From Verrucomicrobiia bacterium (GTDB lineage: Bacteria > Verrucomicrobiota > Verrucomicrobiia > Palsa-1439): a stretch of 64,000 bases of DNA. Each line of letters begins with the position of its first letter. Positions within the stretch are counted from its first letter, which is position 1. Made by a program: the position numbers and the translations under genes. Where the stretch lies: assembly GCA_035515475.1 (NCBI GenBank), contig DATJBF010000005.1:41420-105419 (forward strand), read 5' to 3'. Positions 33,323 to 50,289 of the stretch are shown here, in pieces. The notes under the pieces were generated by a model. It was not told the origin of the DNA, did not search any database, and saw nothing but the letters and a program-made list of their open reading frames with translations.

Positions 33323-33332
33323 GAGCGCATCC

Positions 33333-34199: not shown

Positions 34200-36732
34200 C
34201 GGTGGTCGTCCGCCTGTCGAACGTGTTCGTACTGAGCATCGTGTAGGTCCACTGCAGGAGGCGGACAGTGTAAGCGGTATTATGCACGCCGTGGCTCAAC
34301 TCGCGGGCGATCATCTGGTAGTTCCAGACGGCGGCATGCTGAGCGGTCGCCACAACCGTGTTGGTGGAGTACCCACTCCAGAACGGGTAACCGGCGCTAT
34401 GCTTGAGGGAGTTTGTCGCCGTCGAGCTGTCCACGCAATTCGTCATCTTGTCTTCCAGATTGGCCAGCAGGCCATCGACTTCCGTCTGCACGCCGCTGAC
34501 CGTGCCGTCACCGTTGTAGTCGGCCGCGCCGGGGAACCCGCTTCGGACAATCGAGACGTGATCGAAACCTTCGGCTTCCGTAACCGGATCCACGCCGGCG
34601 TGGCACTGGTTGCACGCGGCAATGTCATCTTCCCCCGTCAATCGGTCGCTCATGCTGAACGTGTGATCGCCGACCGTGTTCACGCCGGCGTTATACATGT
34701 GGCAATCGATGCACTTGGCCACACCGGAGTGCGCCGAGTTTTCGAGGGTGACGCTAGCCACCGGCACGAGATTGGTCACTCCGCCGGTGACCACCGTCGC
34801 CACCACATTGGTGACGGTGTCGAACCCGAGGAGGATGTCGGTTGCCGTGCTTTCGTGGGGTAAGCTACTCATGTAATACGGCTTGCCGCTGCTGACTTGG
34901 TACGGATTCGCGCGGGCGTTGTGGCATTGCATGCACAACGCGGAAGCGCCCTGACCAGTCAGGACGGCATTGGTGCCGGTCGAAGTATCAATGCTGTCGA
35001 GCGTGACCGTGTCATACACCCGGACCTGATGAGCATCCGCCGGGAACATCGCGACGTTGTGTGGATCGTGGCAGGCCTGGCAGGTGAGCCGGCCGGCTTC
35101 CAAGCGCGTGAGCGCCTTGCCCTTCAGGTAATCGACGAAGCTCGTCGGCGAATGGCACTTGGCGCACGAAGGGTTGGGGGCTTCGCCGATCGACACGGAA
35201 AGATATTCATCATCGGCGCCGTGCGGTCCCAATCTCCATTGCTTGGGCCGGTTATGGAAATGGCCATCCTGATGGCAAGTGGCGCACACGGCGACGTCCA
35301 GGTTGGCCGACTCGGCACCGGGGTGCTGGCTACCAGGGCCGTGGCAGCTTTCGCACTGGATGTTGGCCTTGTTCTGCAACGCCGCCGGCATCGCCGCATA
35401 GTTGCCGTACTGCAGCACGGTGGGGAACGTCCAGCCGACTTCCTGCTGGACCGCGTAAAAGTTTCCATTAGTTGCCGAAGGTGACTGGTTGTAGCCCACG
35501 GTATGGCAGGCCAGACAGCTGGCATTGTACGAGGAGCCCAGCAGCCCGTCGATGCCCCGCTGGGCCATCGTGGCGTGCAGCGTCTGGCTCCACGGCGTGT
35601 AGTAATCTTCCAATCCGACCAGCGGGCTGGTTCCGTGACACGACGCGCAGGTGGCGACCCCGACATACGTGGCTCCCCGCACGGTCACGAACGAAGAGTT
35701 TGTCTTCCCGCCGCCGCTCACTGTCAGTTGCAGGACATAATCACCTTCCGCGTCCGGTTCCAGGGACGGCGTGCGTGTCTTGGAGCCCACCAACACCGCG
35801 GTCGAACCGGTCGGCTTGGCCGTGATACTCCAACTGTAGGTCGAGGCGTTTGTTCCGTTGGGTGCCCCGGTCAAGTACTGTCGCTCGCCGAGCGGGATGG
35901 ACGGCTGTCCCGGTGAAACACTGGTCGAAATCACCGTGACGGTACCCGTCGCGGCATGCGCCGCATCCGAAACGATGACTTGAAGATGGTAGGTGGTCGC
36001 CGTTACCTGCTCTGAGGTGAAGTGGACGAGGTTCGAGTTCGTCGCCAGATCGTACGAGTTCTCCAGATCGACGGGATCCAGGACGTTGGTGACGCCGCCG
36101 CTCGTGACGTCCAGCAAATTAGTGAAGCTGGTGAGCGGCAGTGTGTTAAATGTCGGCGCATTTGTGGTCGTGGAACTGAACGTCGCGTTTGTCCGCACGT
36201 CGGTGTCGGTCAGGCTCCAGGCGTACGTGAGGGGCGGAGTGAATCCGTTGGTCGAGACCGCGTCCGCGTTGACGGCGACGTTCGTGTTAAATCCGACATC
36301 GTAAAGAGTCGTTTGCGGCGTGGTGGGCGCGGCGGCTGCGCTGATCGTAATCAGAACCGACTTCTGGCCGATGTTCCGGCGACCGAGCTTCGCTTTCACG
36401 CGCAGCACGGCTGTGCCCAGGAAATTGGTCGGGATCGCCACCGAGTCGCTCGTTACCGACATGACACCGGCGACGACTGAGTTTGTGAGGGCGGGGAAGA
36501 GCACCCGTAATTTCTTACCCGTGAGCCGGCCTTTGGTAACGAGAACACCCGGGCTCGTCACGGTCAGATTGAGTTGATACGTGAGCGTGCCGCCGGATGT
36601 CGGGCTCCCGCCGATCTGGAGCGTTCCCAGTTGGGCTGGTGGAGGTTTGGCCGCGCAAACGGGCTGCAAAACCGAAGTCACCAGCGCGCCGACCAACAAG
36701 CTGGTGCCAACAAACAAGGCGTGTCGAGACAT
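34144..36732 (-). CDS. large secreted/cell-surface 9-heme c-type cytochrome with N-terminal beta-rich (Ig-like) repeats
   Basis: Start MSRHALFVGTSLLVGALVTSVLQPVCA (signal) with GGAGGA RBS. About 380 aa of Thr/Ser/Val-rich strand-like repeats, then 9 CxxCH (CASCH, CLACH, CESCH, CATCH, CAKCH, CQACH, CMQCH, CIDCH, CNQCH). Confidence 0.85.
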   Translation of the reverse strand: MSRHALFVGTSLLVGALVTSVLQPVCAAKPPPAQLGTLQIGGSPTSGGTLTYQLNLTVTSPGVLVTKGRLTGKKLRVLFPALTNSVVAGVMSVTSDSVAIPTNFLGTAVLRVKAKLGRRNIGQKSVLITISAAAAPTTPQTTLYDVGFNTNVAVNADAVSTNGFTPPLTYAWSLTDTDVRTNATFSSTTTNAPTFNTLPLTSFTNLLDVTSGGVTNVLDPVDLENSYDLATNSNLVHFTSEQVTATTYHLQVIVSDAAHAATGTVTVISTSVSPGQPSIPLGERQYLTGAPNGTNASTYSWSITAKPTGSTAVLVGSKTRTPSLEPDAEGDYVLQLTVSGGGKTNSSFVTVRGATYVGVATCASCHGTSPLVGLEDYYTPWSQTLHATMAQRGIDGLLGSSYNASCLACHTVGYNQSPSATNGNFYAVQQEVGWTFPTVLQYGNYAAMPAALQNKANIQCESCHGPGSQHPGAESANLDVAVCATCHQDGHFHNRPKQWRLGPHGADDEYLSVSIGEAPNPSCAKCHSPTSFVDYLKGKALTRLEAGRLTCQACHDPHNVAMFPADAHQVRVYDTVTLDSIDTSTGTNAVLTGQGASALCMQCHNARANPYQVSSGKPYYMSSLPHESTATDILLGFDTVTNVVATVVTGGVTNLVPVASVTLENSAHSGVAKCIDCHMYNAGVNTVGDHTFSMSDRLTGEDDIAACNQCHAGVDPVTEAEGFDHVSIVRSGFPGAADYNGDGTVSGVQTEVDGLLANLEDKMTNCVDSSTATNSLKHSAGYPFWSGYSTNTVVATAQHAAVWNYQMIARELSHGVHNTAYTVRLLQWTYTMLSTNTFDRRTTTVGNPYGGVTGDFPSADLR

Positions 36733-36757
36733 GTCTTTTGTCCTCCAGCCAACCATC

Positions 36758-36777
36758 TTGGCAGGGCACGTGCCAGC
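36758..36777 (-). promoter_or_regulatory. candidate sigma-54 (-24/-12) promoter upstream of the 9-heme cytochrome gene
   Basis: Minus-strand sequence CTGGCAC-GTGCC-CTGCC matches TGGCAC-N5-TTGCW except for one position, about 25-45 nt upstream of ATG 36732. The adjacent gene encodes an NtrC-type sigma-54 activator. Confidence 0.35.
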
Positions 36778-37078
36778 CCGCCTCTCGGGCTCCACAAGGA
36801 CCTAGCCATCAAACGCTTAATAAGCCTTTAGCTCTTTCGTCGGTCGAGGTAAAGCTAATTCTAGCGCGACTTCGCTCGGTCGATTGCGTGATTCCGCGCG
36901 GACTCCGCGATGGGTGTCGTCGCGCCGGCGCCATTTCATGCGGGTTTCAGGGAAGGCGAGCGCCCGTGGCACAACCACTGCTGGGCCGAGACGCGCATGT
37001 TATCGGCCAAAGTACTCTGGTCTGTCGTCGCCTTGATTGGGCTCGCGGTTCTGGCTCTTTCGGCCATCGTGATTGTCA

Positions 37079-38476
37079 TCAGCACGTCGCCGCGCTAGGC
37101 TCGCCCGCCGCGTCCAGCAAACCGTACTTCACCAGCCGCCGTCGCAACGCGTCGCGTTCGATGCCCAACAATTCCGCCGCGCGGGTTTGGTTGCCGCCGG
37201 CGCGCTCCATCGCCTGCAGGACGAGTTCGCGTTCGACTTCGGCCAGCGCCACGCCCCGGCCGGGCAGTTCGACCACCCATTTCCCGTTCTTCTTCACGCC
37301 GGCCCGGATTTCAGGAGGGAGATGCTTGGGCTGAATGACGTCGTCGGATTCCAGGATGACCAACCGTTCGACGGCGTTGCGCAACTCGCGGACGTTCCCC
37401 GGCCAATCGTAACACCGCAGCGCGTCCCCGGCCTCGGGGGACAATTGTTTCGGCGACTTCTTGAATTCTTCGGCAAAGTGCTTGAGAAAATGTTCGGCCA
37501 ATTGGGGAATGTCCTCGCGTCGTTCTCGCAACGGCGGGATGTCGACCGAGATCACCTTCAGTCGATAGAGCAAGTCTTGGCGGAACTCACCACGCGCCAC
37601 GGTTTCGGTGAGGTTCTTGTTGGTGCAGGCGATGACGCGGACATCCACCGCGATGTCCTGCGTACCGCCGACCCGGCGAAATTGCCGGGTCTCGAGTACG
37701 CGCAGCAACTTGGCCTGCATCGCCGGTTTGAGGTCGCCGATTTCATCGAGCAGCAACGTGCCGCCGTCGGCCAACTCGAATAACCCTTTCCGGGACGTCT
37801 TCGCGTCGGTGAACGCGCCGCGCTCGTGGCCGAACAATTCGCTTTCGAACAGGTTTTCCGGCACGGCCGAGCAATTGATGTCGAGGAACGGATGTTCGGC
37901 GCGTCGGCCGCCGAAATGGATCGCCCGCGCGGCCAGTTCCTTGCCCGTCCCGTTCTCGCCTTCGATCAGCACCGTGGTCGCGTCGCTTTCGGCAATCTTG
38001 GCGAGCAACTCGCGCGCAGCACGCATCGGGGGGCTTTGGCCGACGAGATTCTCCAGACCAAACTTCCGCGCCTGTTGGCGTTGCAGGCGGGCGACTTCAC
38101 GGCGCAGCTTTAATTCCCCGCGCGCCTTGTCCAGCGCCACGCGGACCTCATCGAAGTCGAACGGCTTGCACAGATAATTGTGGGCGCCGAGCCGGACGCA
38201 TTCCACCGCGCGGGCGATGCCCGTATCGGCGGTCAACATGATGACGGCGATTTCCTTTCCGAGATTCTTGATTTCCTGCAGCACCTGGACGCCGTCCATG
38301 CCGGGCAGGCGCAGATCGAGCAGCACCAGATCGTACCCATCGTTGCGGATCAGGTTGAGTCCTTCCTCGCCGCTGGGGGAGGTCTCCACCTCGTAGCCTT
38401 CGCGCATCAGCTTTTGCTGAAGCGACCAGCGCACCAGCTTCTCATCGTCAATGACCAATACTTTGGCTCTAGCCAT
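37079..38476 (-). CDS. sigma-54-dependent response regulator (NtrC family)
   Basis: Receiver (KVLVIDDEKLVRWSL...LVLLDLRLPGMDG), AAA+ sigma-54 interaction domain (GENGTGKELAARAIH, ESELFGHERGAFT GAFTGA motif) and C-terminal Fis-type HTH. Confidence 0.9.
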   Translation of the reverse strand: MARAKVLVIDDEKLVRWSLQQKLMREGYEVETSPSGEEGLNLIRNDGYDLVLLDLRLPGMDGVQVLQEIKNLGKEIAVIMLTADTGIARAVECVRLGAHNYLCKPFDFDEVRVALDKARGELKLRREVARLQRQQARKFGLENLVGQSPPMRAARELLAKIAESDATTVLIEGENGTGKELAARAIHFGGRRAEHPFLDINCSAVPENLFESELFGHERGAFTDAKTSRKGLFELADGGTLLLDEIGDLKPAMQAKLLRVLETRQFRRVGGTQDIAVDVRVIACTNKNLTETVARGEFRQDLLYRLKVISVDIPPLRERREDIPQLAEHFLKHFAEEFKKSPKQLSPEAGDALRCYDWPGNVRELRNAVERLVILESDDVIQPKHLPPEIRAGVKKNGKWVVELPGRGVALAEVERELVLQAMERAGGNQTRAAELLGIERDALRRRLVKYGLLDAAGEPSAATC

Positions 38477-39983
38477 GGCTGAATACCTCCTCCCGTACGT
38501 CCGCTTCGGACGGAGCCCAGGCGGCAAATTCCAGGGTGAACGTGCTTCCCCGGCCGACGTCGCTGGTCACTTCAATCACGCCCCGGTGTTTTTCCACGAT
38601 GGTCCGGGTAATGGCCAATCCCAGTCCTGTGCCGCGGTGTTTCGTCGTGAAGAACGGCGAGAAAATCTTCCGCAGGTTCTCCGGCGCGATGCCGTTGCCC
38701 GTGTCGCAGATGCTGACGCGGACGGACCGATCGTGACCGGGCCGCAACACTTTGTTCAACGTTTCCGCGCGCACCGTCAACGTACCGCCGTCGGGCATCG
38801 CTTGAACGGCGTTCAGGAGGACGTTCAGGACCGCCTGTTGAACTTGGGAACTATCGGCGCAGATCGGTGGCAGGTCGGCCGGACACTGCTCGACAATTCG
38901 CACGTGCTGCTTCTGAGCGTCGGGCCGAATCAGCCCGAGCATGGGCTTGATGATATCGCTCACGGCGCAGGCCGCGATCTCCGGGTCGCGCTGGCGCGAG
39001 AAATCCAGCAACTCCCGCAAGGTGGCGTTCAAGCGCGCGATCTGCCGCCGGATTTCGGCGACAATCTCGCCCTGCTGTCCGTTGCCGCCGTTTTCCGACA
39101 GCACTTCCACTGCCGCGCCGATGCCGGCCAACGGATTGCGGATCTCGTGGGCGATGCCCGCGGCCAGTTCGCCAATCGAGGCGAGCTTGCCCGCTTGTTG
39201 GATCTGCTTCTCGTGCGACTCGTGCAATTCGCGTTTGGCGGCATCGAGGCTCTGCAGCATCCGGTTGAAACCGGTGGCGAGCTCGCCGATTTCATCTTTG
39301 GTCTGCGCGGCGACCCGAACGTTGAGGTCGCCGGCCTGGACCTTGCGCATTTGTTCCAAGACCTGACTGACGGGTTGAGTGACCAGCCGGACGATGAGCA
39401 GCCACAACACAACGCCGACCAGCACGAAGATCACCACGCCGTAGGCGATGAGCAGATTGCGGTTGCTGGCCACGCTGGCTTCGGCGGGCGCGAGGGACCG
39501 TTCCAGGACAATCGCGCCGTTGTATCGCTGCCGGGGATCGTGACATTTCTGGCAGCTGTCGACGTTGGTGACCGGGCGCATGGCGACGGCGAGACGTTCG
39601 CCGTTTTCGGTCCGCTCCCCCTGCAGCACACGGCCTTCGCCGAACAATTCCGGCGGCACGGTCATTACGGCGTGCTCGATCTCCTGGGTTTCGGTCGAGA
39701 ACGCCACCGTGCCGTCGACGCGGATCACGCGGCCCCGGCGGATTTCGTCGCTGGCCTGCATCCGCATGAGGAATCCCTGCAACTCCAGATGGCGATCGCT
39801 GAGCATCACGCCGTTGAGGTACTCGTGCACCATCGAGGCCGCGATGAGATTCTGCGCCTGGGTGCGCTCGTGCCACCATTCGCTTTGGACGCGAATCACG
39901 AAATACGTGTAGATCCCGATTACCATGGCAACCGTTACGCCGACGGCCACGAGAACTTTCGCCGTGAGATTACGTCGCAGCAT
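38469..39983 (-). CDS. sensor histidine kinase with periplasmic heme-c-binding (CxxCH) sensor domain
   Basis: Two TM segments flank a periplasmic domain of about 150 aa containing CQKCH. HAMP, HisKA (IAHEIRNPLAGI) and HATPase_c (DTGNGI, GTGLGL) follow. Overlaps the downstream regulator start by 8 nt. Confidence 0.85.
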   Translation of the reverse strand: MLRRNLTAKVLVAVGVTVAMVIGIYTYFVIRVQSEWWHERTQAQNLIAASMVHEYLNGVMLSDRHLELQGFLMRMQASDEIRRGRVIRVDGTVAFSTETQEIEHAVMTVPPELFGEGRVLQGERTENGERLAVAMRPVTNVDSCQKCHDPRQRYNGAIVLERSLAPAEASVASNRNLLIAYGVVIFVLVGVVLWLLIVRLVTQPVSQVLEQMRKVQAGDLNVRVAAQTKDEIGELATGFNRMLQSLDAAKRELHESHEKQIQQAGKLASIGELAAGIAHEIRNPLAGIGAAVEVLSENGGNGQQGEIVAEIRRQIARLNATLRELLDFSRQRDPEIAACAVSDIIKPMLGLIRPDAQKQHVRIVEQCPADLPPICADSSQVQQAVLNVLLNAVQAMPDGGTLTVRAETLNKVLRPGHDRSVRVSICDTGNGIAPENLRKIFSPFFTTKHRGTGLGLAITRTIVEKHRGVIEVTSDVGRGSTFTLEFAAWAPSEADVREEVFSHG

Positions 39984-41247
39984 GCCGGGCCTCCCGGGCC
40001 ACCCCGACGGATGTTGGCGAAACCGGCGCACCGGCCGCCGGGTGCTCAAACAGCGGCAGGTAGCGGGCGGCCAGGCCAAAAATGACCAGGCCAAACGAGA
40101 GCAGATTCAACGTGATCACGATCTCGATCCACGAGGGAAAATAATGCGAGCCGGTGGCGGGCAACAGGCCGATCCAGGCCACGTTGAGCCGGTTGAGAAT
40201 TACTCCGACGATCACCGGGATCGCGGCGGCAAACGCCCAGCGCCGGCGGCCCGACCACCGGGTCTTCAGCAGCACGAACAACGGCAGCGTCAGCAGCACC
40301 ATCTCCACCGTGAACGTGAATCCTTGGAGCGGATAGGCGAACACGTCCACCCACGCGTTCCGCGCCGTGAGATCGGCAATGCGCAGGAACAAATACAACA
40401 TCAGGAACGGGGTCATGCTCTTCGCCAGCACCGTCAGCACCTTCGGATCCAGTGGCCGCCGGAACATCCAAAACGACAACGCCGAAACGAAAATCGCCAT
40501 CGCGAAACCGGAGACCAATGCGCTGATGAAGAAAAACACGGGAATGAACGGCGAATACCACAACGGCAGCAGCTTCTCGGGCACGATCAGAAACAACGAG
40601 CCGAGCGACGATTGATGCACGGTCGACAGCACCACGCCGCAGATCACAGCAGGAACGGTCACGGCGTGGACGAAATGCTCCAGGCGATGCCAGCCGAGCT
40701 TCTGGAGAACAATCGGCGCAAACTCCACGGTCAACACGCACGTGTACAGGATCACGCACCACGAGACCTCGAAGAGCACGGACCGATGCTGCCAGCTCAC
40801 AATGGGCATCCAGATTTTGTAGTAGCGTCCGAGATCGACGATCAAGGCTCCCGACGCCGACAGCGTGTAGCAGAGATAAGCGGCCAGGACGATGGGACGC
40901 AGGATCGGGTAGAAGGTCCGAATGCGAAACACGTACGCCATGCACGCGGTCAGAAACCCGCCGGCGGCAAAGGCGATTCCGCACAGAACCATCGCCTTCC
41001 ACAAGCCCCACGGAAAAGCGTTTGTGAGGTTCGTGACGGCTCCCAACCCGAGCGTGTAGCGCGTCGCAAACGCATATCCGCCGAGACCCCACAGCGCAAT
41101 CAGGAACGCCCACCCGACGACGGCGGCGGAGAACGATCGCGGACGTTGCCGGCCTTCGAGGAACCAGCACGCGACCACCGCCAGACCCGCCATGACCAGC
41201 GCGGCGAAAATGCGAAACAGAATGAGCAGGAAATCCATTTCAGCCAT
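39970..41247 (-). CDS. NrfD/PsrC-family integral membrane quinol-interacting subunit
   Basis: 425 aa, about 10 TM helices, NrfD-like size and hydropathy; follows an NrfC-like Fe-S protein with an 8-nt overlap. Confidence 0.7.
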   Translation of the reverse strand: MAEMDFLLILFRIFAALVMAGLAVVACWFLEGRQRPRSFSAAVVGWAFLIALWGLGGYAFATRYTLGLGAVTNLTNAFPWGLWKAMVLCGIAFAAGGFLTACMAYVFRIRTFYPILRPIVLAAYLCYTLSASGALIVDLGRYYKIWMPIVSWQHRSVLFEVSWCVILYTCVLTVEFAPIVLQKLGWHRLEHFVHAVTVPAVICGVVLSTVHQSSLGSLFLIVPEKLLPLWYSPFIPVFFFISALVSGFAMAIFVSALSFWMFRRPLDPKVLTVLAKSMTPFLMLYLFLRIADLTARNAWVDVFAYPLQGFTFTVEMVLLTLPLFVLLKTRWSGRRRWAFAAAIPVIVGVILNRLNVAWIGLLPATGSHYFPSWIEIVITLNLLSFGLVIFGLAARYLPLFEHPAAGAPVSPTSVGVAREARHAAT

Positions 41248-42145
41248 GCGTTTCCTTCCGGCTGCGCAGACGGGACACGGCGCTGAGGATCAATCCCAGC
41301 CCGATCACAATGTAGGGAACCTTTGCCAGCCAGTTCCAGGTCAAGGCGGGCAGGGGCGTCGTCGGCAGGCCCGTGGGCAGACCGAGTTGCTCCACGGGGA
41401 TATCCGACAGGTACAACCACGAGGTTCCTCCCACCACGCGGTCGCCAAATAACGTGACGTACCGTTTGGGTTGCGCGGCGACGCGGGCCCGGGCTTCCTG
41501 CAAGATGTCCCGGTGTTTTCCATACTTCAACGCGCCCGTCGGACAGGCGGCCACGCAGGCGGGCAAAAGCCCGGCGGCCGTTCGGTCGTCACAGAAATCG
41601 CACTTGTTCACGCGAGGAGTCAACGCGTTGTCCCACTCGTATTTCGGCACGTTGAACGGGCACGCCAGAAGACAGTAGCGGCAACCGATGCATCGGTCGT
41701 CCCGCCAGACAACGGAACCGCGAGCCGTCTTCTCCAGCGCGGCGACGGGACAGACCGAAACGCAGGCGGGCTCCAGACAATGCATGCATTGCCGTTTCAC
41801 GGGGACCTGACGCATCGATCCCTCGGACGTGGGAACGTCGCGGAAATCCACAAACGTCCGCGATTTGAACGTCAGCTTGCCGTCGCCGGGCCCGTACCCG
41901 AACGTTGCGGGCGCCAACCCCGGATAGCCCTGCCGCACCAAGCAAGCGTTCTCGCAAGCCCGGCATCCAATGCACCGCGTGAGATCGACCAGCACCGCGC
42001 CGTCCCGGCTCGCGTCGTGGGACCCGCTTTCGGCTGACGACGCGGTCGCACCGGCCGCCAGCAGCGACAGCCCGGCCATGCCCCGGCGACAAAACGTGCG
42101 CCGCGAGATGCGCTGGGCAAACAGATGATGGCGTGGCTCCGTCAT
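41240..42145 (-). CDS. Tat-exported 4x[4Fe-4S] ferredoxin subunit (NrfC/PsrB/HybA-like)
   Basis: Twin-arginine signal (RRTFCRRGMAGLSLLAAGATA) and four Cys clusters (CIGCRACENAC, CMHCLEPACVSVCP, CIGCRYCLLACP, CDFC...CVAACP). Confidence 0.85.
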   Translation of the reverse strand: MTEPRHHLFAQRISRRTFCRRGMAGLSLLAAGATASSAESGSHDASRDGAVLVDLTRCIGCRACENACLVRQGYPGLAPATFGYGPGDGKLTFKSRTFVDFRDVPTSEGSMRQVPVKRQCMHCLEPACVSVCPVAALEKTARGSVVWRDDRCIGCRYCLLACPFNVPKYEWDNALTPRVNKCDFCDDRTAAGLLPACVAACPTGALKYGKHRDILQEARARVAAQPKRYVTLFGDRVVGGTSWLYLSDIPVEQLGLPTGLPTTPLPALTWNWLAKVPYIVIGLGLILSAVSRLRSRKETHG

Positions 42146-43152
42146 GGTTCCTTCGCGTCGGGAGGTTGGTTGTGCGCGGACGGATCCCGCGCCGGACCCG
42201 AATCACGGTCCTGTTTGCGGGCCCGGAAATGGGGCACGGCATACCCGCAGAATACTCCCAAGAGAAACGCCAGGGCGATCAACGGGACAAACACACGTTG
42301 GTTTGCCTGCAAGTCGGCGCGCAGCTTGGCAGCCTGTTCCTCCAGGGAGCCAACCTTGTTCTCCAAGGCCTCGGGGTTGGCCGCTTTGAGCCGGGCCACT
42401 TCCTGTTCGAGCGTAGCCGTCTCATGGCTTTGGTGGACCATTTCCCGATGGCATCGGATGCAGGTCTCCGCGCCGACCGTGAAGGTGTGGCCGCGGACGC
42501 CCGTTCCGCGGATTTTCGGCGTGCCCGTCGCCAACTCAGGCATGTGGCAGGTAATACAGTGCAGTCCTTGGGAGTGATGCGTCGCGTGGGTGAAATCCTT
42601 GAGTTGTTCGGCGTGACAGGTGCCGCACATCTGGTCGGGATCGTCTTTGCGCAACGCCATGCTATGCATTTTATGACAATCAAAACAGCGGACGTTTTTC
42701 TGGCCGTGGGCGCTGACGCGCCATTCCCCATAGGTGATGCTGTGGCACGCCTGGCAGACGTCCGAGGTCACCGGCAACGCCATCTTCTCCTTGTCGGGAT
42801 GATCGTCCTTCGCCGGGCCGTGACAGGATTCACAACTCACGCCGTCGTGAGAGAATTGCCCGGTTTTCCGGTCGTACTGGCTGGTGTGGCAGACGAGGCA
42901 TTCCCACTTGTTTCCCTGCTGCTCGCGGATCGCCAGGAACTCGGGATTGACCGCCCGTGCGTGGGCCGAGGCCGCCCAATCCTTGGTGTCCTGTTCGTGG
43001 CAGAGCGCGCACCGGTCAGACGCTTTCTCCTCGTCCGCCCACGTCGTCATTACGCCCCAAATGACCAATGCCGAAATCCCAATGACCAGATACCGGCAAA
43101 ATCCGAATGGCAGAAACAGGGGCGCGCGACGTGTTTTTTTGGTGATCGTCAT
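42142..43152 (-). CDS. membrane-anchored octaheme c-type cytochrome
   Basis: 8 CxxCH (CALCH, CLVCH, CESCH, CQACH, CFDCH, CGTCH, CITCH, CIRCH) with N-terminal signal anchor and C-terminal TM (PLIALAFLLGVFCGYAV). Confidence 0.85.
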   Translation of the reverse strand: MTITKKTRRAPLFLPFGFCRYLVIGISALVIWGVMTTWADEEKASDRCALCHEQDTKDWAASAHARAVNPEFLAIREQQGNKWECLVCHTSQYDRKTGQFSHDGVSCESCHGPAKDDHPDKEKMALPVTSDVCQACHSITYGEWRVSAHGQKNVRCFDCHKMHSMALRKDDPDQMCGTCHAEQLKDFTHATHHSQGLHCITCHMPELATGTPKIRGTGVRGHTFTVGAETCIRCHREMVHQSHETATLEQEVARLKAANPEALENKVGSLEEQAAKLRADLQANQRVFVPLIALAFLLGVFCGYAVPHFRARKQDRDSGPARDPSAHNQPPDAKEP

Positions 43153-45248
43153 TTGGTTGTTCCTTGGTCCTTCGGTGCTTGGTCATTGGTCGTTTCCGCC
43201 AATCCCTGCGGTTCATCCCGCCGTTTCTTCCCGATGAGCCACGACGGATTCATCGGGTATTCCTTCGGGTCGAAAATGACCCAGTAGAAGTGCCACACCA
43301 GGATCGCCAGCGTTGCCAGTAGCGCCTCGTAGAAGTGGATCACCTGGGCCACGTCGTGCCACACTTTTGGCAGGAGCCGCAACACCGTGTTGGTGAAAAT
43401 CAACATCGCGCCGGTGATGATCATGACCACCGAACCCCAGACCAGCGCCCAGTACTCCGCTTTCTCGACATAGTTCCAGCGCCGGTGCGGCGGTGGCGTC
43501 TTGCGCAAGCCGAGGTTGTACGCCAGTTGGGCGACGGCGTCCCGCAGATCATGCGGCACCATCCACAACGCCCACAAGTAGCTGCGGCCCCGGCGGGTAC
43601 CGACCAGTGTGAACAAATGGGCCACGAACAATACCGCGAAGGTCCAACCGCAGACGCGGTGGATCATCCCGCGGACGTAGGCCCCCGTTTCTCCGAACGC
43701 TCGGAACGGCCAGCTCCACACCGCGTCGGGGAATTTGTGCGCGAACCCGGTATAGGCCAACAGGACGAACAGTACCAGCAGCAACCAATGTTGGGCGCGG
43801 GCCAGCCGGGTCAATCGCAGTTCCGCGTGCGCATCGGCGTTTACCGCACGGATATGGGCGCGAGTTTTCCGCAGATAGTCGAGCGAATTAAACGCCACCA
43901 TCCCGCCGATGGTCACAACGATCAGCACGATGTAGAGCCGCGAAATGAAATTCACGAGGAACGGTTTGCCCTCCGCCGCGCCGGGCGGGGCATGAATTTT
44001 GAAGAACTCCGCGCTTAACCGCGTGCCGATGCCCGGATGACACTTGCCACACGTTTGCGGCAGATTCTTCGGATTGATGGTGGAAAGCGGGTCGCTGGCG
44101 GGGAGGATGTCGTGCACGCCGTGGCAGGAAGCGCAATTGGCCGCGGTGAGATCGCCGCCCTGCAATGCCAAACCGTGAAAGCTTTGGATGTAGGTCGTGA
44201 ACACGTTCGGGGGCAAGCGGTACTGCGTGATGATCCGCTGCGCCGCGTGACACTGCCCGCAGGTCTCGGGAATATTGGCCGGGGAAACCCGGGACGTCGC
44301 CAGTTTGACGGCCTGGATGGTGTGCTCGCCGTGGCAATCGGTGCACACGGGCGCATCGCGCACGCCCCGCTTGACCGCCTGGCCGTGAACGCTGCGCAAA
44401 TAGGTCTCTTCGACGTTCTCATGGCATTTCCCGCAGGTGTTGGGCACGTTCTGCCAGTACAACTTCGACTGCGGGTTGGTCGATTTGTGCAGGTCGTGCG
44501 AGCCATGGCAATCCGTGCAGACCGCTGCGTTCAGTTCGTGTTTCTTCAACAGCGCGATGCCGTGGACGCTCTCTTCGTAGCTCACGATCGGGCTGCGCTG
44601 GCGCAAATGAAATTTCTCCATCTCCGCCGTGTTGCCGTGGCATCGGCCACAGGTGTTGGGGATGTTGGTTCGATACACGGGCGAGGCGGGGTCGCGGTAA
44701 TTCAGCAACTCGTGGGGATTGCCGTGGCAATCCCGGCACGACGCCGCTTCCGAAACGCCCTTGTGAACGGCCTGGCCGTGATCGCTGTTCAGATAGATCT
44801 GCGTCTCCACCCGATGGCACTGGCCGCAACTGACGGGCTTGAGATGTTCCGCGTGCGGCACGTCCGTGATATCGGTATGGCAACTCGTGCACAGGTTTTT
44901 CCCGTGAATCGAGCGCGAGAATTTCTCTTCATCGATGAACAGCGAGACCACCTTACCTGCGGCGTTCGTTTCGACGAGCGTCTGATCAGAATGGCAGAGG
45001 AAACAGTCGGAATTTTCAATGGCCCGAGCGCTGGCGGCAACCGATAGAGCAGCGATGAGGAAGGCGCATCCCTGCGCCCTGATCCTCTTCGCCGACCAGC
45101 GGGGGCGAGGAGATGCTTGGGGCGCGTTCTCTCTCCCCGGGACGCACGGGAGCGGGTTCGCCGCCAACGTTAACTCATGCCGTCGCATAACTGTGCAGTC
45201 CACTGAGCAGGTAGTTGACGCCGAAGTAGGTGAAGATGACCGAGGCAA
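43149..45248 (-). CDS. CbcL-like fusion: 11-heme c-type cytochrome plus C-terminal diheme cytochrome b (HydC/FdnI-type) membrane domain
   Basis: 11 CxxCH in the N-terminal 420 aa. The C-terminal 250 aa has 4-5 TM helices with conserved His pairs (HWLLLVLFVLLAYTGFAHKF, HRVCGWTFAVLFVAHLF, HDVAQVIHFYEALLATLAILVWHFYW). The true start is probably a non-ATG codon downstream of 45175, since the ORF-track 5' end overlaps the ccsA-like gene. Confidence 0.8.
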   Translation of the reverse strand: MPRSSSPTSASTTCSVDCTVMRRHELTLAANPLPCVPGRENAPQASPRPRWSAKRIRAQGCAFLIAALSVAASARAIENSDCFLCHSDQTLVETNAAGKVVSLFIDEEKFSRSIHGKNLCTSCHTDITDVPHAEHLKPVSCGQCHRVETQIYLNSDHGQAVHKGVSEAASCRDCHGNPHELLNYRDPASPVYRTNIPNTCGRCHGNTAEMEKFHLRQRSPIVSYEESVHGIALLKKHELNAAVCTDCHGSHDLHKSTNPQSKLYWQNVPNTCGKCHENVEETYLRSVHGQAVKRGVRDAPVCTDCHGEHTIQAVKLATSRVSPANIPETCGQCHAAQRIITQYRLPPNVFTTYIQSFHGLALQGGDLTAANCASCHGVHDILPASDPLSTINPKNLPQTCGKCHPGIGTRLSAEFFKIHAPPGAAEGKPFLVNFISRLYIVLIVVTIGGMVAFNSLDYLRKTRAHIRAVNADAHAELRLTRLARAQHWLLLVLFVLLAYTGFAHKFPDAVWSWPFRAFGETGAYVRGMIHRVCGWTFAVLFVAHLFTLVGTRRGRSYLWALWMVPHDLRDAVAQLAYNLGLRKTPPPHRRWNYVEKAEYWALVWGSVVMIITGAMLIFTNTVLRLLPKVWHDVAQVIHFYEALLATLAILVWHFYWVIFDPKEYPMNPSWLIGKKRRDEPQGLAETTNDQAPKDQGTTK

Positions 45249-46017
45249 ACCCGATGACCGAGATCCACGCCGCGCGCTGGCCTTTCCAGCCGCGCATGAA
45301 CCGGCAGTGCAAGAACACGGCGTAGATCAACCACGTGATCAGCGACCAGGTTTCCTTCGGGTCCCAACTCCAGTAGGTGCCCCACGCGGAATTCGCCCAC
45401 ACCGCGCCGCTGATGATGCCGACCGTCAGGAACAGGAACCCGAACGAAATCGTCTTGGCCGTGGCCGCGTCGAACGCATCCACGTAGTCAATGGTGGCAC
45501 GGGCTTCCGTGCCTGTGCGTCCACGGACCGGTACGCCCGTGCCACCTCGGATTCGGACCGCCACGAGATATCCGACGCTCGCCGCAAACGCGACCGCGAA
45601 CGCACCGTAGCCGAGGAAGCAGGTGAACACGTGCACCGTCAGCCAGTTCGACCGCAAGGCGGGCATCAACGGCTTGATCGTCGAATCCTGATACGTGCTC
45701 GCATACGCCAGCGTCAGCACCGCCAGCAACGCCGTCGCCGCTCCCAACGCGGGAATCTCGCGGCGGACCCGCAACGCCAGGTAGACGACCACGACCGCCC
45801 ACGCGAACAACACGAGCGATTCGAACATGTTGCTGAACGGCGCCCGGCCCGCGCTGATCCAACGCAGGACGAGATAAACCGTCTGCGCGATCAGCCCGGC
45901 CGACAGCAGCCCGGTCGCCGCGGTCGCAAAGCGGCGTTTACTGGAAAACAGGTTCGCCGCCGCAAGCAGCAGCGCCGTCAGATAGCCAGCCAGGCTGAGA
46001 TTGAATGCGAACGTCAT
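45175..46017 (-). CDS. CcsA/ResC-family cytochrome c assembly protein (HemX-like, downstream of hemA)
   Basis: WWD-type motif WGTYWSWDPKETWSL with conserved His residues in TM helices. Probable start MTFAFNLSLAGYL; the ORF-track start at 46146 is an extension overlapping hemA. Confidence 0.75.
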   Translation of the reverse strand: MTFAFNLSLAGYLTALLLAAANLFSSKRRFATAATGLLSAGLIAQTVYLVLRWISAGRAPFSNMFESLVLFAWAVVVVYLALRVRREIPALGAATALLAVLTLAYASTYQDSTIKPLMPALRSNWLTVHVFTCFLGYGAFAVAFAASVGYLVAVRIRGGTGVPVRGRTGTEARATIDYVDAFDAATAKTISFGFLFLTVGIISGAVWANSAWGTYWSWDPKETWSLITWLIYAVFLHCRFMRGWKGQRAAWISVIGFASVIFTYFGVNYLLSGLHSYATA

Positions 46018-47101
46018 GGTCGTCCTTTCCGTCGCCTGGAGGGCGAGCCTCCCGGCGAGCCGTCGTCCCCTGCGGTTCGGCAGGAGCCTCACCCTCCACG
46101 TGCAGTTTGGGGAGCAACGCGGCGGTGTGTTTGTCGATGATGGCACGGCACAGCGCCAACTCCTGTTCGCGATGGTGCACGTTGTGGCGCACGATCGCTT
46201 CCAAATCGTCGATGTTGTAAAGGTAAACGTTGTCGATCCGCTGCGCGTCGGGATCGATGTCGCGCGGCACGGCGATGTCGATCAGGAACAGCGGACGGTT
46301 GCGCCGCGTCTGCATCAGCTTCTCCACGTCGGCCCGATGCAGAATCGTCTGGGGACAACCCGTCGAGCTGACCACGATGTCCACGTCGGCCATTCGCTGG
46401 AGACAGTCGTCGAACCGGATCGCCTGACCGTTGAATTCCGTCGCCAGGGCTTGCGCGCGGTCGAACGAGCGGTTGGAGACGAGGATCGATGGGGCGCCCT
46501 TCTTGGCGAGGTGGCGCACGCAGGCTTCGCCCATCTTGCCGGCGCCGATGATCATCACCGTGTGCTTCGACAAATCGTGACGGAAAATCTTCTCGGCCAA
46601 CTCCACCGCCACGCTCCCGACCGACGTGGCGCCGCGGCCAATCGCCGTGCGGGTGCGGATTTCCTTCACCGCTTGAAACGCTTTCTGGAACACGCGGTTA
46701 AGCGTCGCGCCGGTCAACCGCGCGGCATGGGCCGATTCATACGCGTGCTTGACCTGGCCCGTGATTTCGGTCTCGCCAAGCACCATCGAGTCGAGCCCGC
46801 TGGCGACCGAGAACAGGTGGGCGATGGCGTCGGCGCCATCGCGCAGATAGAGATGCTCCCGCACGTCGCAAACGTACTTCGAGAGCAACTGAAACAGCGA
46901 TTTCACGTTGCCGTTGACGGCCGGCGCGACGCCGTAGATTTCGACGCGATTGCAGGTCGAGAGCAGCACGACTTCGTCGAGGCCGCCGACGACCCTGAGC
47001 CGGCAACCGTGGCAGCCGAGCTGCGATGGTGCGATGGCGAGTTGCTCGCGCAATTCGACCGGCGCGGTCTTGTAGCTCAGCCCGGCGACAAAGAGGGTCA
47101 T
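45938..47101 (-). CDS. hemA: glutamyl-tRNA reductase
   Basis: MTLFVAGLSYKTAPVELREQL, catalytic LSTCNRVEIYGV, NADPH-binding IIGAGKMGE; GGAGGA RBS. The C-terminus may be shorter than the ORF-track end. Confidence 0.9.
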   Translation of the reverse strand: MTLFVAGLSYKTAPVELREQLAIAPSQLGCHGCRLRVVGGLDEVVLLSTCNRVEIYGVAPAVNGNVKSLFQLLSKYVCDVREHLYLRDGADAIAHLFSVASGLDSMVLGETEITGQVKHAYESAHAARLTGATLNRVFQKAFQAVKEIRTRTAIGRGATSVGSVAVELAEKIFRHDLSKHTVMIIGAGKMGEACVRHLAKKGAPSILVSNRSFDRAQALATEFNGQAIRFDDCLQRMADVDIVVSSTGCPQTILHRADVEKLMQTRRNRPLFLIDIAVPRDIDPDAQRIDNVYLYNIDDLEAIVRHNVHHREQELALCRAIIDKHTAALLPKLHVEGEAPAEPQGTTARREARPPGDGKDDHDVRIQSQPGWLSDGAAACGGEPVFQ

Positions 47102-47115
47102 GGGCCCCGTCCTCC

Positions 47116-47250
47116 CAAATCCGAAATCCGAAATCCGAAGCCGAGCCGCAGGCGAGACCTGCGCAGCAAATCCGAAACAATTTCCAAACTCAAATTTGGG
47201 AAATTCGGATTTGGCTCGTATTTCGAGATTCGAATTTCGGATTTCATTTG
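47116..47250. repeat. AT-rich array of direct and inverted AAATCCGAA/TTCGGATTT motifs between resB stop and hemA start
   Basis: aaatccgaaatccgaaatccgaag (three or more direct copies), aaatccgaaacaatttcc...gggaaattcggattt (imperfect 18-20-bp inverted repeat), ttcgaatttcggattt. Local GC is far below the flanks. Confidence 0.7.
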
Positions 47251-48446
47251 TGCAGCCATGGATTCAGGTAGAACACGATGAACAAGCCGGCGATCATCAG
47301 GCTGAATCCCGCATAAACGACGGGCACGCCGGGATCTTTCACGACCTGCAACGACGTGTAGCTGAGGTCGTTGGGGTCGTAGCCCGATTGATAGAACGTG
47401 TAGCCTTTGTACGAGAACGGGCTATTGACCTCGACCTGGCGCTCACCCACGACCGTTCCTCCATCGATCACATCCACCGTGCTGCGAAATGACTTGATTG
47501 GCCCGCGGGGCATCGGCTCGCGCGGTGTTGCCCCGTCGTCCTGATAGACCATCTGCAGGGGACTCGAGGCGGTCGTCTGCCCGCCGGGACCGTGCATCGT
47601 GAAATCGGGGAACTTCGCGAACAACCAGCGGTGGTTGGAATACGATGGCCCGGCGACGGCTACAAGGATCGCGGGGTTGCGCGGTTCGTTGGACCGGCTC
47701 GTCACCTCTTTCGTGTTCGTATCGATCACGAAATCGGGGACGTATTTCAGGATCGTGATCTTGAATTCGCCGAGCGTCTGTTCGACGCCAAGCTTGATCG
47801 GCAGGCTCGCCTGAAGCTTCTTTTCAGGCCACGCCACCAGCAACGCGGGGCCGCAATCGGTGTGCGACAACGCGCCGTTCTCCGATCCGTCGCCGGACTT
47901 CTTCTGGTCATACGTTTCGATCTCGAACTTTGTCAGGTGAATCGCAAACGGGAGCGGCTTGACGCCGCGGTCGTCCACAAACTGCGCGGCGGTCTGGCCT
48001 TCGCGGAATTCGAGGTAACCCTTCTGTCCCCACACGCCGCGGATCACGCCGCCCGCCAGAATCATCAGGATGCTCAGGTGCGTGAGCATCGAGCCGAATG
48101 CCCGGCCGCGCGCATAGCCCGTTGTCCGTCGGACGGTGGCGAAGCGCCGCGTGCTGCATACGGCGACGGTCGACGACAGCACGCACAGCAACGCGATAAA
48201 CCACCACGAGGAGAACGTGTGTGTCAGCCCGGCCTTGCCGAGCCAGTCCATGCGTGCCGTTGCTTCGGGGTGCCTCGCAAGGTAACGCGCGACGTCCGCG
48301 CCTTGCGGCAACAGCGTACCGAGAACGCAGGCAGCGGCGATGATAACGACGACGCCAACCGCGAATTTCACGGAGGAGAGCTGGTCGAAGATGCGCGAGG
48401 TCAGCGATTTCCTGGATGTAACCTGTGTGGAATGACCTTGCCCCAT
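47244..48446 (-). CDS. ResB/Ccs1-family cytochrome c biogenesis protein (System II)
   Basis: N-terminal TM (FAVGVVVIIAAACVLGTLLPQ), large periplasmic domain, C-terminal TM; size and topology match ResB. Probable start MGQGHST at about 48446. Confidence 0.65.
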   Translation of the reverse strand: MGQGHSTQVTSRKSLTSRIFDQLSSVKFAVGVVVIIAAACVLGTLLPQGADVARYLARHPEATARMDWLGKAGLTHTFSSWWFIALLCVLSSTVAVCSTRRFATVRRTTGYARGRAFGSMLTHLSILMILAGGVIRGVWGQKGYLEFREGQTAAQFVDDRGVKPLPFAIHLTKFEIETYDQKKSGDGSENGALSHTDCGPALLVAWPEKKLQASLPIKLGVEQTLGEFKITILKYVPDFVIDTNTKEVTSRSNEPRNPAILVAVAGPSYSNHRWLFAKFPDFTMHGPGGQTTASSPLQMVYQDDGATPREPMPRGPIKSFRSTVDVIDGGTVVGERQVEVNSPFSYKGYTFYQSGYDPNDLSYTSLQVVKDPGVPVVYAGFSLMIAGLFIVFYLNPWLHK

Positions 48447-48727
48447 GGCCACCTTTCGTGTGACGGGCGGTGGCTTAGCAGTGGCCTTGCCAGTGGATGC
48501 CGCAGGTTGGGGCGACGGTCTGTAAGCGCTTGGCCTACAGTCGATTGCCGTGCGCGAAATCGCGCAGGCGACGAATCGGCTGCGCCGATCGTCGACCGAC
48601 AGATTGGCGGCGGGCTCCCGTTTCATGACAGCTTGTCATCAGTCGCCAAGCCAAGAGGCGATAGGGGGACGCGCTGCGTTGCAACCGAATCTTTGACTCG
48701 GCTCCGCTATTCGTCGCGGTGTCAACC

Positions 48728-49381
48728 CTACGGAGGTGTCGTGCGTGTGAGGTAGCTCCTTCGCGATTCCCTCACTTGGAAGCCGATCCGTTTCTTCGGC
48801 GGCGGTTCTGGCAGCGCAGGTAGGTCGATGATGTCCATGACGCGTTGGAGGATGGTGACGATGGCCGCTTCGTGCACATCGAGCCGGTCCTTGAGTTCCT
48901 TTTCCAGCGCGGCGAGTTTGCGGGCTTGTTCGCGGGTCGCGGTCAGCGTGGCGCGCATCTTCACGAAGGCGCGTACGACAAACACGCTCATGTCGACGGC
49001 ACGTGGACTGTTGAGGACGTTTGCTGCCATAATGGCGCCGTGCTCCGTGAAGGCAAAGGGGAGATAGCGGCGGCCGCCCCTGCGTTTTGAGGTCACAATC
49101 TGTGACCTCAAAGCTCCTTCGGAACCGGTCACAAATTGTGATCGGTTCGATGCGGTCACAAATTGTGACCGCATGGCTTCAAAGTCCTCAGCGTTCAATT
49201 GGAACATGAAATCCGATGGAAATTTCCTCGAGTTGCGTTTGACTGCCTGATTCAAAGCCTTTGTTGTCACGCCGTAAACCGCTGCCAAGTCGGCATCGAG
49301 CATGACCTTCTGACCGCGAATCTCGTAAATCAGCCGGTCAAGATATTCCACCCGAATTACTGAGGGCTTCTCCTGAGCCAT
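48728..49381 (-). CDS. ORF6N-domain protein (phage/mobile-element-associated DNA-binding family) with internal triplicated RSQ(F/I)VT repeat
   Basis: IRGQKVMLDADLAAVYGVTTKALNQAVKRNSRKFPSDFMFQL ... RRYLPFAFTEHGAIMAANVLNS is the ORF6N signature. The canonical LRSQIVTS segment is preceded by two extra RSQFVT copies. Confidence 0.7.
   Translation of the reverse strand: MAQEKPSVIRVEYLDRLIYEIRGQKVMLDADLAAVYGVTTKALNQAVKRNSRKFPSDFMFQLNAEDFEAMRSQFVTASNRSQFVTGSEGALRSQIVTSKRRGGRRYLPFAFTEHGAIMAANVLNSPRAVDMSVFVVRAFVKMRATLTATREQARKLAALEKELKDRLDVHEAAIVTILQRVMDIIDLPALPEPPPKKRIGFQVRESRRSYLTRTTPP
49091..49170. repeat. three in-frame copies of a 17-bp perfect/near-perfect palindrome GGTCACAA(A/T)TTGTGACC with extended compensated arms, inside the ORF6N coding sequence
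   Basis: Copies at 49091-49107 (ggtcacaatctgtgacc, arms extend to ttgaggtcaca/tgtgacctcaa), 49127-49143 (ggtcacaaattgtgatc) and 49154-49170 (ggtcacaaattgtgacc, arms tgcggtcacaa/ttgtgaccgca). Spacings of 36 and 27 bp keep the reading frame. Confidence 0.8.
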
Positions 49382-49582
49382 CGCCGGGTAGTATGCCAAT
49401 GCGAGTCAGTGGCGGCAAGTCTCTCGTGACAGGTGTCAGCAACCGGACGAGGAACGCTCACGGCGCGCTCAGCGAGCACGCCCTACCAACGACCGTCAGG
49501 CGGAAACACTCGCGCCACTGCAAAAAAACGCCGGCCCGGTTGGTGACCGCGCCCGGCGTCGGCAGACAGGTCTCGGGAAAAC

Positions 49583-50176: not shown

Positions 50177-50289
50177 CGTCAAGGCTCCTTGAATGACTGG
50201 TTCGTGTTCTGACCGGCTACTCCTCTGCCGGGCGATCATACCGACATCCCAGATTTTTTCCACACAAAAATGTTCGTCGTCAAACGTCC

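Follow-up and report, generated by a model that had tools for sequence, protein, structure and literature searches.

A CbcL-type bc-cytochrome gene overlapping genes for an octahaem cytochrome, a four-cluster iron–sulfur protein and an NrfD-family subunit: a candidate quinol-to-periplasm electron-transfer locus in Verrucomicrobiia

The window analysed here, a whole stretch of 64,000 nucleotides from an uncultured Verrucomicrobiia bacterium of soil or peat (contig DATJBF010000005.1), carries on its minus strand four intact open reading frames (ORFs), here named A to D. They encode a multihaem bc-cytochrome of the CbcL type, an octahaem cytochrome, an exported iron–sulfur protein and an integral membrane subunit of the NrfD family (Table 1). 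The parts and their general function are known; the conserved, asymmetric pairing of A with B-C-D is the new element and seems undescribed. The original prediction for this DNA described four consecutive minus-strand genes with 4-8-nt overlaps. The ORF coordinates agree (A/B and B/C overlap by 4 nt each, C/D by 8 nt), a Pfam search upholds all four of its domain-level calls, and the four-gene observation is confirmed as described.

The run of overlapping genes extends beyond these four and reads ccsA-A-B-C-D-kinase-regulator, preceded by resB and hemA. The order of the upstream ResB, HemA, and CcsA genes is kept in Verrucomicrobiia loci. The ORF of A reaches back to a TTG codon at 45248, but its probable start is the ATG at 45188 (M21), from which A overlaps ccsA by 14 nt, as it does in the orthologous locus L002. 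Co-transcription of A-B-C-D is inferred solely from these overlapping and conserved gene junctions; scans of the window for sigma70 promoters and terminators stayed at background level and were uninformative on operon structure.

The product of gene A contains 11 CxxCH motifs and neither CxxxCH nor CxxCK variants. All 11 are invariant across 20 homologues, together with 11 invariant non-motif His, a pattern consistent with bis-His ligation. In Pfam, A matches multihaem families and, at aa 479-659, the Ni_hydr_CYTB family (PF01292, E 1.9e-15, score 57.6 bits, cutoff 30.1), so that motif count and domain match both agree with the predicted fusion of 11 haem motifs to a HydC/FdnI-type cytochrome b domain. 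Five His are invariant in the b domain (H467, H510, H524, H618, and H633, numbered from M21). In an hhalign alignment with Escherichia coli FdnI (E 1.5e-4), H467 falls on FdnI H18 and H510 on FdnI H57. The last helix holds H618 and H633, which are comparable to FdnI H155 and H169. These two His stand 15 residues apart (H-x14-H), a spacing also seen in a Geobacter-type CbcL fragment. The candidate b-haem ligands, whose absence on alignment had been named beforehand as grounds for giving up the assignment, are thus present.

The N-terminal hydrophobic stretch of A ends in ..ASARA|IENSD, an AxA-type cleavage site, and looks like a cleavable Sec signal peptide; mature A would then have five transmembrane (TM) helices, not six. 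The His positions fit a c domain outside and an FdnI-like bundle that begins and ends in the cytoplasm. AlphaFold2 models were poor by predicted local distance difference test (pLDDT): 49.8 for A, with only the b domain usable, and 55.2 for B, with only the C-terminal helices usable. With the poor model of A, the top Foldseek match in the PDB was a weak one to FdnI (1kqf_C), followed by Hyd-1 cytochrome b, and a profile of the b domain gave no meaningful match against PDB sequences.

The architectural analogy with CbcL of Geobacter, part of the original prediction, holds over both domains: A aligns with a 9-haem Geobacter-type CbcL across the c and b domains at 25-32% identity (tblastn, E 6e-32). 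This comparator (L001) is a frameshifted metagenomic locus of the Geobacter type, reached via fragment P0122, and is not GSU0274 itself; its reconstructed CbcL gene has 9 CxxCH, arranged as one haem plus four pairs. The b domains of the two proteins have the motifs RW.Y.EK, H..EALLAT......H, and P.K.PMN/D in common. With a multi-CxxCH periplasmic domain, a HydC/FdnI-like b domain, TM His for two b haems and homology over both domains, A is by sequence a member of the CbcL/MtrH/MtoC family. In haem number and TM helices it does not match CbcL in the strict sense, the G. sulfurreducens type, which has nine c haems and six TM helices. That type is required for respiring acceptors below about -0.1 V.

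The CbcL/MtrH/MtoC family extends over 15 phyla, includes four Verrucomicrobia proteins, ranges from 3 to 23 motifs and has some five-TM members (Zhong and Shi, PMC6295460). Exactly 11 motifs occur in 63 of 72 full-length relatives of A. The presence of 11 haems instead of 9, at first put forward as a departure from CbcL, is therefore not new, because the family was already known in Verrucomicrobia with 3-23 haems and 11 is the norm for a large subfamily. Searches returned more than 7991 matches to A, and at least 579 species-level genomes encode a relative, all those listed being metagenome-assembled genomes (MAGs); the nearest relatives are in Verrucomicrobiia MAGs, at up to 90% identity. 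Six homologues (P0046, P0048, P0068, P0070, P0073, and P0078) are about 1009 aa long and carry an N-terminal AhbA/B (NirDL/AsnC) region, as either fusions of a haem-synthesis enzyme with a CbcL-type protein or merged gene calls. A Binatia-like contig (L003, 7929-11914) encodes two tandem A paralogues of 691 and 637 aa without B-C-D, followed by Hdr-, Flx-, and NADH-dehydrogenase-like genes.

Gene B encodes eight CxxCH motifs, likewise without CxxxCH or CxxCK. All eight are invariant in 28 homologues, alongside eight conserved non-motif His, and eight haem motifs were found in 16/16 orthologues examined. One such His for each haem suggests bis-His electron-transfer haems. At the level of sequence, the invariance of the haem motifs of A and B among their homologues far exceeds chance. 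The N-terminal hydrophobic segment of B ends in ..TWA|DEEK (..ARA|DDE in orthologues), again an AxA-type site, and is probably a cleavable Sec signal peptide; B would then be singly anchored by its C-terminal helix, and the earlier description of a doubly anchored cytochrome is probably wrong. The C-terminus forms a long helical stalk and one TM anchor, and these helices (pLDDT 86-95) are the sole confident parts of the model of B. No conserved His lies in the C-terminal helix. B is distantly related (24% identity) to the periplasmic cytochrome of the conduit encoded downstream. Its Pfam match to Cytochrom_C552 is below threshold (17 bits against 24), and Pfam and NCBIfam searches returned no NhcA or HmcA match.

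Gene C matches Fer4_11 (Pfam, E 2.8e-23). Its product has the features of four-cluster ferredoxin subunits: 16 Cys in four groups (residues 58-68, 120-132, 152-162, and 182-201), a twin-arginine translocation (Tat) signal with the motif SRRTFCRRG, and a C-terminal TM helix. Its sequence identity is 33% with FdnH and 32% with E. coli HybA. Against NCBIfam it scores 255 for HmcB (cutoff 420), 192 for HybA (263), 155 for FDH-beta (335), 103 for DsrO (200), and 94 for NrfC (378), reaching no equivalog cutoff for HmcB, HybA, FDH-beta, or NrfC. The description of C as an NrfC-like Tat iron–sulfur protein stands for the Tat signal and the four [4Fe-4S] clusters; of the family labels compared, NrfC is the weakest. 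The nearest solved relative is FdnH (1kqf_B, E 1.8e-38), a rank that may partly reflect which structures exist, as no HybA or HmcB structure is among the PDB matches.

Gene D matches NrfD (PF03916, Pfam E 1.6e-16), as had been predicted, and carries no haem or iron–sulfur motifs. Its identity with E. coli HybB is 31% (E 2e-50). Against NCBIfam it scores 268.7 for HmcC (cutoff 550) and 264.8 for HybB (450), which by sequence makes it a relative and not an equivalog of these proteins. A simple hydropathy scan gives 11 hydrophobic segments, where ten TM helices are expected for the HybB/HmcC/NhcC subgroup of the NrfD/PsrC family, and comparison with PDB sequences gave no match. D keeps all the N-side channel residues of HybB (R89, Y99, E148, and H184), 4/6 of its proposed quinone-site residues and 5/6 of its P-side channel residues, as listed in Table 2 of PMC8076601. 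Residues whose mutation in HybB impairs Hyd-2 (summarised in PMC8076601) are among those kept (R117, Y127, E175, and H211). On these sequence features B-C-D is best described as a Hyd-2/Nhc-type iron–sulfur/NrfD membrane module with a tail-anchored octahaem partner.

Of 83 A loci, about 18 show the order A-B-C-D; they belong to Verrucomicrobiia, Brocadiia, Omnitrophota, and Elusimicrobia. In the remaining loci, A stands alone, is duplicated or lies beside an ImcH-like gene, and about 80% of related loci have A without B-C-D. Among close Verrucomicrobiia relatives, two (L006 and L007) have the conduit directly after A, and a third (L008) has the kinase and regulator but not B-C-D. Because these close relatives do without B-C-D, A is, judged from gene content, autonomous. 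The presence of B-C-D is patchy on a rough tree, which implies gains and losses.

The reverse dependence is of another kind. The B family returned 236 matches, as against the more than 7991 for A, and wherever B-family loci (at least 46% identity) had enough flank, a CbcL-type gene was adjacent (14/14 metagenome loci, plus L086 and L087). In one locus (L085), B-C-D comes first and A follows, split into separate c and b genes that are 41-44% identical to A. This asymmetric linkage across at least four phyla, with A common without B-C-D and B beside a CbcL-type gene wherever the flanks suffice, is suggestive, not conclusive, because only four to six independent lineages are represented. The literature searched, incomplete in coverage and so weak as evidence of novelty, yielded no account in which a CbcL-type protein is joined with an octahaem/HybA/HybB-like trio, and none of the Geobacter clusters checked combines a CbcL-type gene with such a trio.

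Other electron-transfer and regulatory genes surround the four. The sensor histidine kinase that directly follows D carries its single CxxCH (CQKCH) in a periplasmic loop between two TM helices, and this motif is kept in 14/14 orthologous kinases; the protein is probably a haem-c redox sensor. Between the sigma54-dependent regulator and the conduit genes, a TGGCAC-N5-YTGC element was found in 7/9 orthologous intergenic regions. The sigma54 consensus is not enriched window-wide and only its position and conservation across loci are suggestive; together they suggest that the adjacent regulator drives the conduit. The original prediction also placed a conduit downstream, and porin-cytochrome genes are present there on the same strand. 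In gene content, they constitute a conduit of the Verrucomicrobia type, with adjacent genes for a periplasmic multihaem cytochrome, a porin and an extracellular multihaem cytochrome.

Upstream of A, an ImcH-like protein has the motif and TM pattern described for ImcH homologues. In L001 (4635-8524) an ImcH-like gene directly follows the 9-haem CbcL gene, and its product is 38% identical to that of the window. A Rieske/cytochrome b cluster next to it resembles the Cbc6-like bc complex of Geobacter (PMC2825233). Geobacter Cbc6 was considered as a precedent for the pairing of a b cytochrome with NrfD and rejected, being a Rieske/cytochrome b cluster. Between the small cytochrome gene of this cluster and resB lies an ORF6N-domain gene, phage/antirepressor-like (48728-49399, minus strand), which is missing from that position in the syntenic L002 and may be a recent insertion. 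On either side of the cytochrome island are genes for alternative haem biosynthesis, encoding a fused AhbA/AhbB siroheme decarboxylase (54902-55939, plus strand), an AhbD-like radical SAM/SPASM haem synthase (29578-30813, minus strand; 437 bits, cutoff 500) and an AhbC/NirJ1-like radical SAM protein (25830-27035, minus strand). A Ser/Thr protein kinase is encoded downstream of the radical-SAM genes, at 21339-22709 on the minus strand, and has a glycogen-binding domain (AMPK1_CBM/CBM48) at its C-terminus.

Table 1. Coordinates (window numbering) of the four genes, their domains and neighbouring features.
Feature	Coordinates	Strand	Description
Gene A	ORF 43149-45248, likely start 45188	-	CbcL/MtrH/MtoC-family bc-cytochrome, 679 aa from M21
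A, periplasmic multihaem c domain	43974-45020	-	~aa 57-405 from M21; one haem plus five two-haem repeats
A, membrane domain	43269-43961	-	~aa 410-640 from M21; linker TM helix plus FdnI/HydC-like four-helix dihaem-b bundle
Gene B	42142-43152	-	Octahaem c-type cytochrome, 336 aa
Gene C	41240-42145	-	Tat-exported 4x[4Fe-4S] protein, HmcB/HybA/FdnH type
Gene D	39970-41247	-	NrfD-family integral membrane subunit, HybB/HmcC/NhcC type
CcsA	45175 to ~45900	-	System II cytochrome c maturation; gene overlaps A
HemA	45938-47101	-	First haem-synthesis step; upstream of A
ResB	47244-48626	-	System II cytochrome c maturation; upstream of A
Sensor histidine kinase	38469-39983	-	Directly after D; CxxCH in periplasmic loop
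Sigma54-dependent response regulator	37079-38476	-	Enhancer-binding protein; overlaps kinase gene
Sigma54-type -24/-12 element TGGCACGTGCCCTGC	36761-36775	-	~30 nt upstream of first conduit gene
Putative porin-cytochrome conduit	31304-36795	-	Three genes downstream of regulator
Conduit 883-aa cytochrome	34144-36795	-	9 haem motifs, PKD-like domain
Conduit periplasmic cytochrome	33333-34199	-	7 CxxCH, DmsE/GSU2203 type
Conduit putative beta-barrel	31304-33367	-	687 aa; only weak Pfam match and C-terminal ..VRF
Small 4-haem cytochrome	C-terminal part of ORF 49583-51184	-	Flanks Rieske/cytochrome b genes
Cytochrome b	50290-51486	-	Beside Rieske gene
Rieske protein	51483-51920	-	Part of bc-type cluster 49583-53250
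9-haem cytochrome	51913-53250	-	Flanks Rieske/cytochrome b genes
ImcH-like inner-membrane cytochrome	53103-54689	-	3 TM, one CX3CH (CGQTCH), six CxxCH; upstream of A

The locus is probably, though by no means certainly, devoted to the transfer of electrons from menaquinol to periplasmic cytochromes for extracellular respiration, with B-C-D as an accessory to A. The quinone site of FdnI lies on the cytoplasmic side of the membrane. In HybB-type subunits, the quinone site and proton path are on the periplasmic side (PMC8076601). Because of these opposite positions, A-B-C-D is read as two quinol-oxidising entries. At a cytoplasmic-side site in A, quinol would be oxidised and electrons passed through two b haems to the 11 bis-His c haems in the periplasm. 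D would have a HybB-like periplasmic-side quinone site and proton pathway and would exchange electrons with the four iron–sulfur clusters of C, and these with octahaem B. In this way B-C-D would add a second quinol site, on the opposite side, feeding the same periplasmic haem network as A, from which electrons would reach the downstream porin-cytochrome conduit.

In CbcL, oxidation of quinol at the cytoplasmic site is argued to release protons inside and to generate no proton-motive force, in keeping with respiration at low potential and low yield (bioRxiv 10.1101/2022.08.31.506072). To judge from Geobacter CbcL and CbcBA and from Hyd-2 running in reverse, both modules probably serve low-potential acceptors such as humics or Fe(III) oxides and bring the cell little or no energy. 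Intact genes, cofactor motifs, homology, synteny and the pattern of linkage are shown by the sequences. The physical association of B-C-D with A, the direction of electron flow, the sidedness of the quinone sites and the energetics are all inferred. The genomic context is supportive: the window also encodes System II maturation, HemA, the haem-sensor kinase, the sigma54 regulator with its promoter element, the conduit, the ImcH-like protein and the Rieske/cytochrome b complex. A bolder form, in which A-B-C-D constitutes one supercomplex with quinone sites on opposite membrane faces linked by four iron–sulfur clusters, 19 c haems, and two b haems, is rather unlikely. Such a complex might act as a quinone loop like that of DsrMKJOP or Hmc, or as a potential-gated switch that sets how much proton-motive force each electron exported to extracellular acceptors costs or conserves.

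Several observations weigh against a cooperative role of the two modules in outward electron transfer. All relatives of the A subfamily that were found are MAGs, and many B-positive loci come from closely related Verrucomicrobiia, which reduces the independent lineages to about four to six. By the gene content of most genomes, A works without B-C-D and a joint complex is not required. Conversely, a remote B-C-D-like trio (L107, 28-32% identity) has no A nearby, and the iron–sulfur/NrfD modules of Nhc, Hyd-2, and Nrf function without a b cytochrome (PMC8076601). A and B-C-D might be independent, parallel quinol oxidases, co-located and co-regulated in a respiratory island, each delivering electrons on its own to soluble periplasmic cytochromes, and used at different potentials like ImcH, CbcL, and CbcBA in Geobacter. 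This arrangement is possible but doubtful. It would account for the roughly four fifths of loci in which A stands alone and for the trio of L107, it would be in keeping with the ImcH-like protein and Rieske/cytochrome b complex that lie side by side in the window, and Nrf, Nhc, and Geobacter Cbc4 are examples of self-sufficient NrfD/iron–sulfur/cytochrome modules (PMC8076601; bioRxiv 10.1101/2025.04.14.648717). However, the B family was observed only with a CbcL-type gene adjacent, even where A is split and reordered, and the stop and start of A and B overlap by 4 nt.

The direction of flow is a separate matter, as the best-characterised homologues (FdnI, HybAB, Qrc, and Nhc) natively reduce quinone, and an analogous role here would make both modules energy-conserving quinone reductases. 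Electrons would then come from donors outside the cell or in the periplasm, such as reduced humics, Fe(II) or a syntrophic partner, and the modules would resemble the redox loop of formate dehydrogenase N (FDH-N) and electrogenic Qrc or Hyd-2. The closest characterised relatives of the b domain (FdnI) and of C and D (HybA/HybB, HmcB/HmcC) are quinone reductases, as are the Nhc and Qrc complexes (PMC8076601), homologues of CbcL/MtoC occur in Fe(II) oxidisers as well as in Fe(III) reducers (PMC6295460), and CbcBA has been proposed to run in reverse in the sulfate-reducing partners of anaerobic methanotrophic archaea (PMC10553843). Inward flow is nevertheless improbable: the island includes an ImcH-like gene, and ImcH homologues have to date been recorded in metal reducers alone (PMC6295460), genetics make Geobacter CbcL a quinol oxidase, and for inward flow an FdnI-type b domain would require a donor whose potential lies well below that of the quinone. 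More improbable still, by a clear step, is that B-C-D anchors a catalytic reductase of the periplasm (Nrf-, Mcc-, or Psr-like) in the membrane and is unrelated to extracellular electron transfer. Pairs of the NrfC/NrfD type usually serve a catalytic subunit (PMC8076601), and some sources label homologues of B 'formate-dependent nitrite reductase cytochrome c552 subunit'. Yet the conserved block contains no NrfA, molybdopterin or MccA-type subunit, the match of B to Cytochrom_C552 is below threshold, and B lacks CxxCK and with its eight conserved non-motif His for eight haems apparently has no open haem site.

Verrucomicrobiia of this type are repeatedly recovered from peat, palsa, and soil metagenomes, where humic and iron respiration competes with methanogenesis. 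The octahaem/iron–sulfur/NrfD module travels with CbcL-type cytochromes across several phyla. If A and B-C-D do work together, they could reveal how cells tune energy conservation to acceptor potential, for which Geobacter uses separate enzymes. The haem-c kinase, the sigma54 regulator and the conserved promoter element suggest a redox-sensing circuit for the conduit. The supercomplex, if it exists, would represent a class of respiratory complex not recognised before, with members in Verrucomicrobiota, Omnitrophota, Elusimicrobiota, and Planctomycetota.

Among known systems, A is closest to CbcL. The Geobacter protein joins a nine-haem c domain to a dihaem b domain of the HydC/FdnI type, which has six TM helices; five His are candidate ligands, of which two lie, as in FdnI, in the fifth helix (PMC9129911; bioRxiv 10.1101/2021.04.15.440034). 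A resembles G. sulfurreducens CbcL (GSU0274) in the fusion of multihaem c and dihaem b domains, in its five TM His with two in the last haem-binding helix and in a conserved non-motif His pattern consistent with bis-His c haems in both. Unlike the Geobacter-type protein, A has 11 haems by way of one extra two-haem repeat and is without the extra C-terminal TM helix of L001. In this lineage A is followed by B-C-D, whereas no B-C-D was found beside the CbcL gene of L001.

In CbcBA (GSU0593-0594) of G. sulfurreducens, a quinol oxidoreductase of the bc type, the multihaem subunit is held in the membrane by a C-terminal TM helix, as is B, and the split A of L085 is analogous to the division between CbcA and CbcB. 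CbcBA is also under a sigma54-dependent response regulator and has homologues in Verrucomicrobia MAGs (bioRxiv 10.1101/2021.04.15.440034). In Geobacter genetics, both CbcL and CbcBA are tied to low-potential acceptors and sigma54 control (bioRxiv 10.1101/2021.04.15.440034; 10.1101/2022.08.31.506072). CbcB and the b domain of CbcL are reported to share no sequence homology (bioRxiv 10.1101/2021.04.15.440034). A belongs to the CbcL lineage, unlike CbcBA, and the C-terminal helix of B is without conserved His.

For B-C-D, the closest parallels are Hyd-2 and the Nhc and Hmc complexes. C is like HybA of E. coli Hyd-2 in its Tat signal, 16 Cys, and C-terminal TM helix, and D is like HybB with the residues tested there. 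HybO of Hyd-2 is anchored by a C-terminal TM helix, and so is B. The partner in Hyd-2 is a [NiFe] hydrogenase, here it is octahaem B, and C and D fall below the HybA and HybB equivalog cutoffs. NhcABCD and HmcABCDEF of sulfate reducers likewise combine a multihaem c cytochrome with an HmcB-type iron–sulfur protein and an HmcC-type NrfD subunit, and HmcB and HmcC are the top NCBIfam matches of C and D. Hmc also has a b-type membrane subunit, HmcE, of the NarI type, and is in this respect a precedent for b-type and NrfD-type subunits in one system; it includes a cytoplasmic catalytic subunit as well. Unlike the multihaem subunits of Nhc and Hmc, B is not a c3-type 9- or 16-haem cytochrome, and the b domain here is of the FdnI type and fused to 11 c haems. 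The block contains no HmcD, HmcE, HmcF, or NhcD-type genes and so falls outside the Hmc/Nhc type. It also falls outside NetBCD/NrfBCD, as the NetB model reaches 21 bits against 380, on A and not on B, and the NrfC score of C is far below cutoff.

DsrMKJOP offers parallel parts in DsrP (NrfD), DsrO (iron–sulfur), DsrJ (membrane-anchored multihaem c) and DsrM (dihaem b), and a quinone cycle between its two membrane subunits has been proposed (PMC8076601). The original prediction called the occurrence of b-type and NrfD-type quinol sites in one operon unusual. Uncommon it is, but DsrMKJOP provides a precedent (PMC8076601), albeit with a b subunit of the NarI type. The cytoplasmic catalytic DsrK is absent from the present locus, DsrM is NarI-type where A is FdnI-type, and DsrO is a weak match to C. 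FDH-N comes closer in two respects: FdnH is the nearest solved relative of C, and the b domain of A matches FdnI by profile and weakly by fold. By this analogy, C may dock on the b domain of A as FdnH does on FdnI. In contrast to FDH-N, the locus encodes no molybdopterin subunit, and HmcB and HybA are better matches to C than FDH-beta is.

At the outer membrane, the porin-cytochrome clusters reported from Verrucomicrobia have the same organisation as the conduit here, with an extracellular multihaem cytochrome, a periplasmic multihaem cytochrome and a large porin (He et al. 2017, PMC5615132). The inner-membrane step was left there as a generic box labelled 'ET in IM' (inner-membrane electron transfer), and for this step, beside the outer-membrane conduit, the present locus gives concrete candidates.

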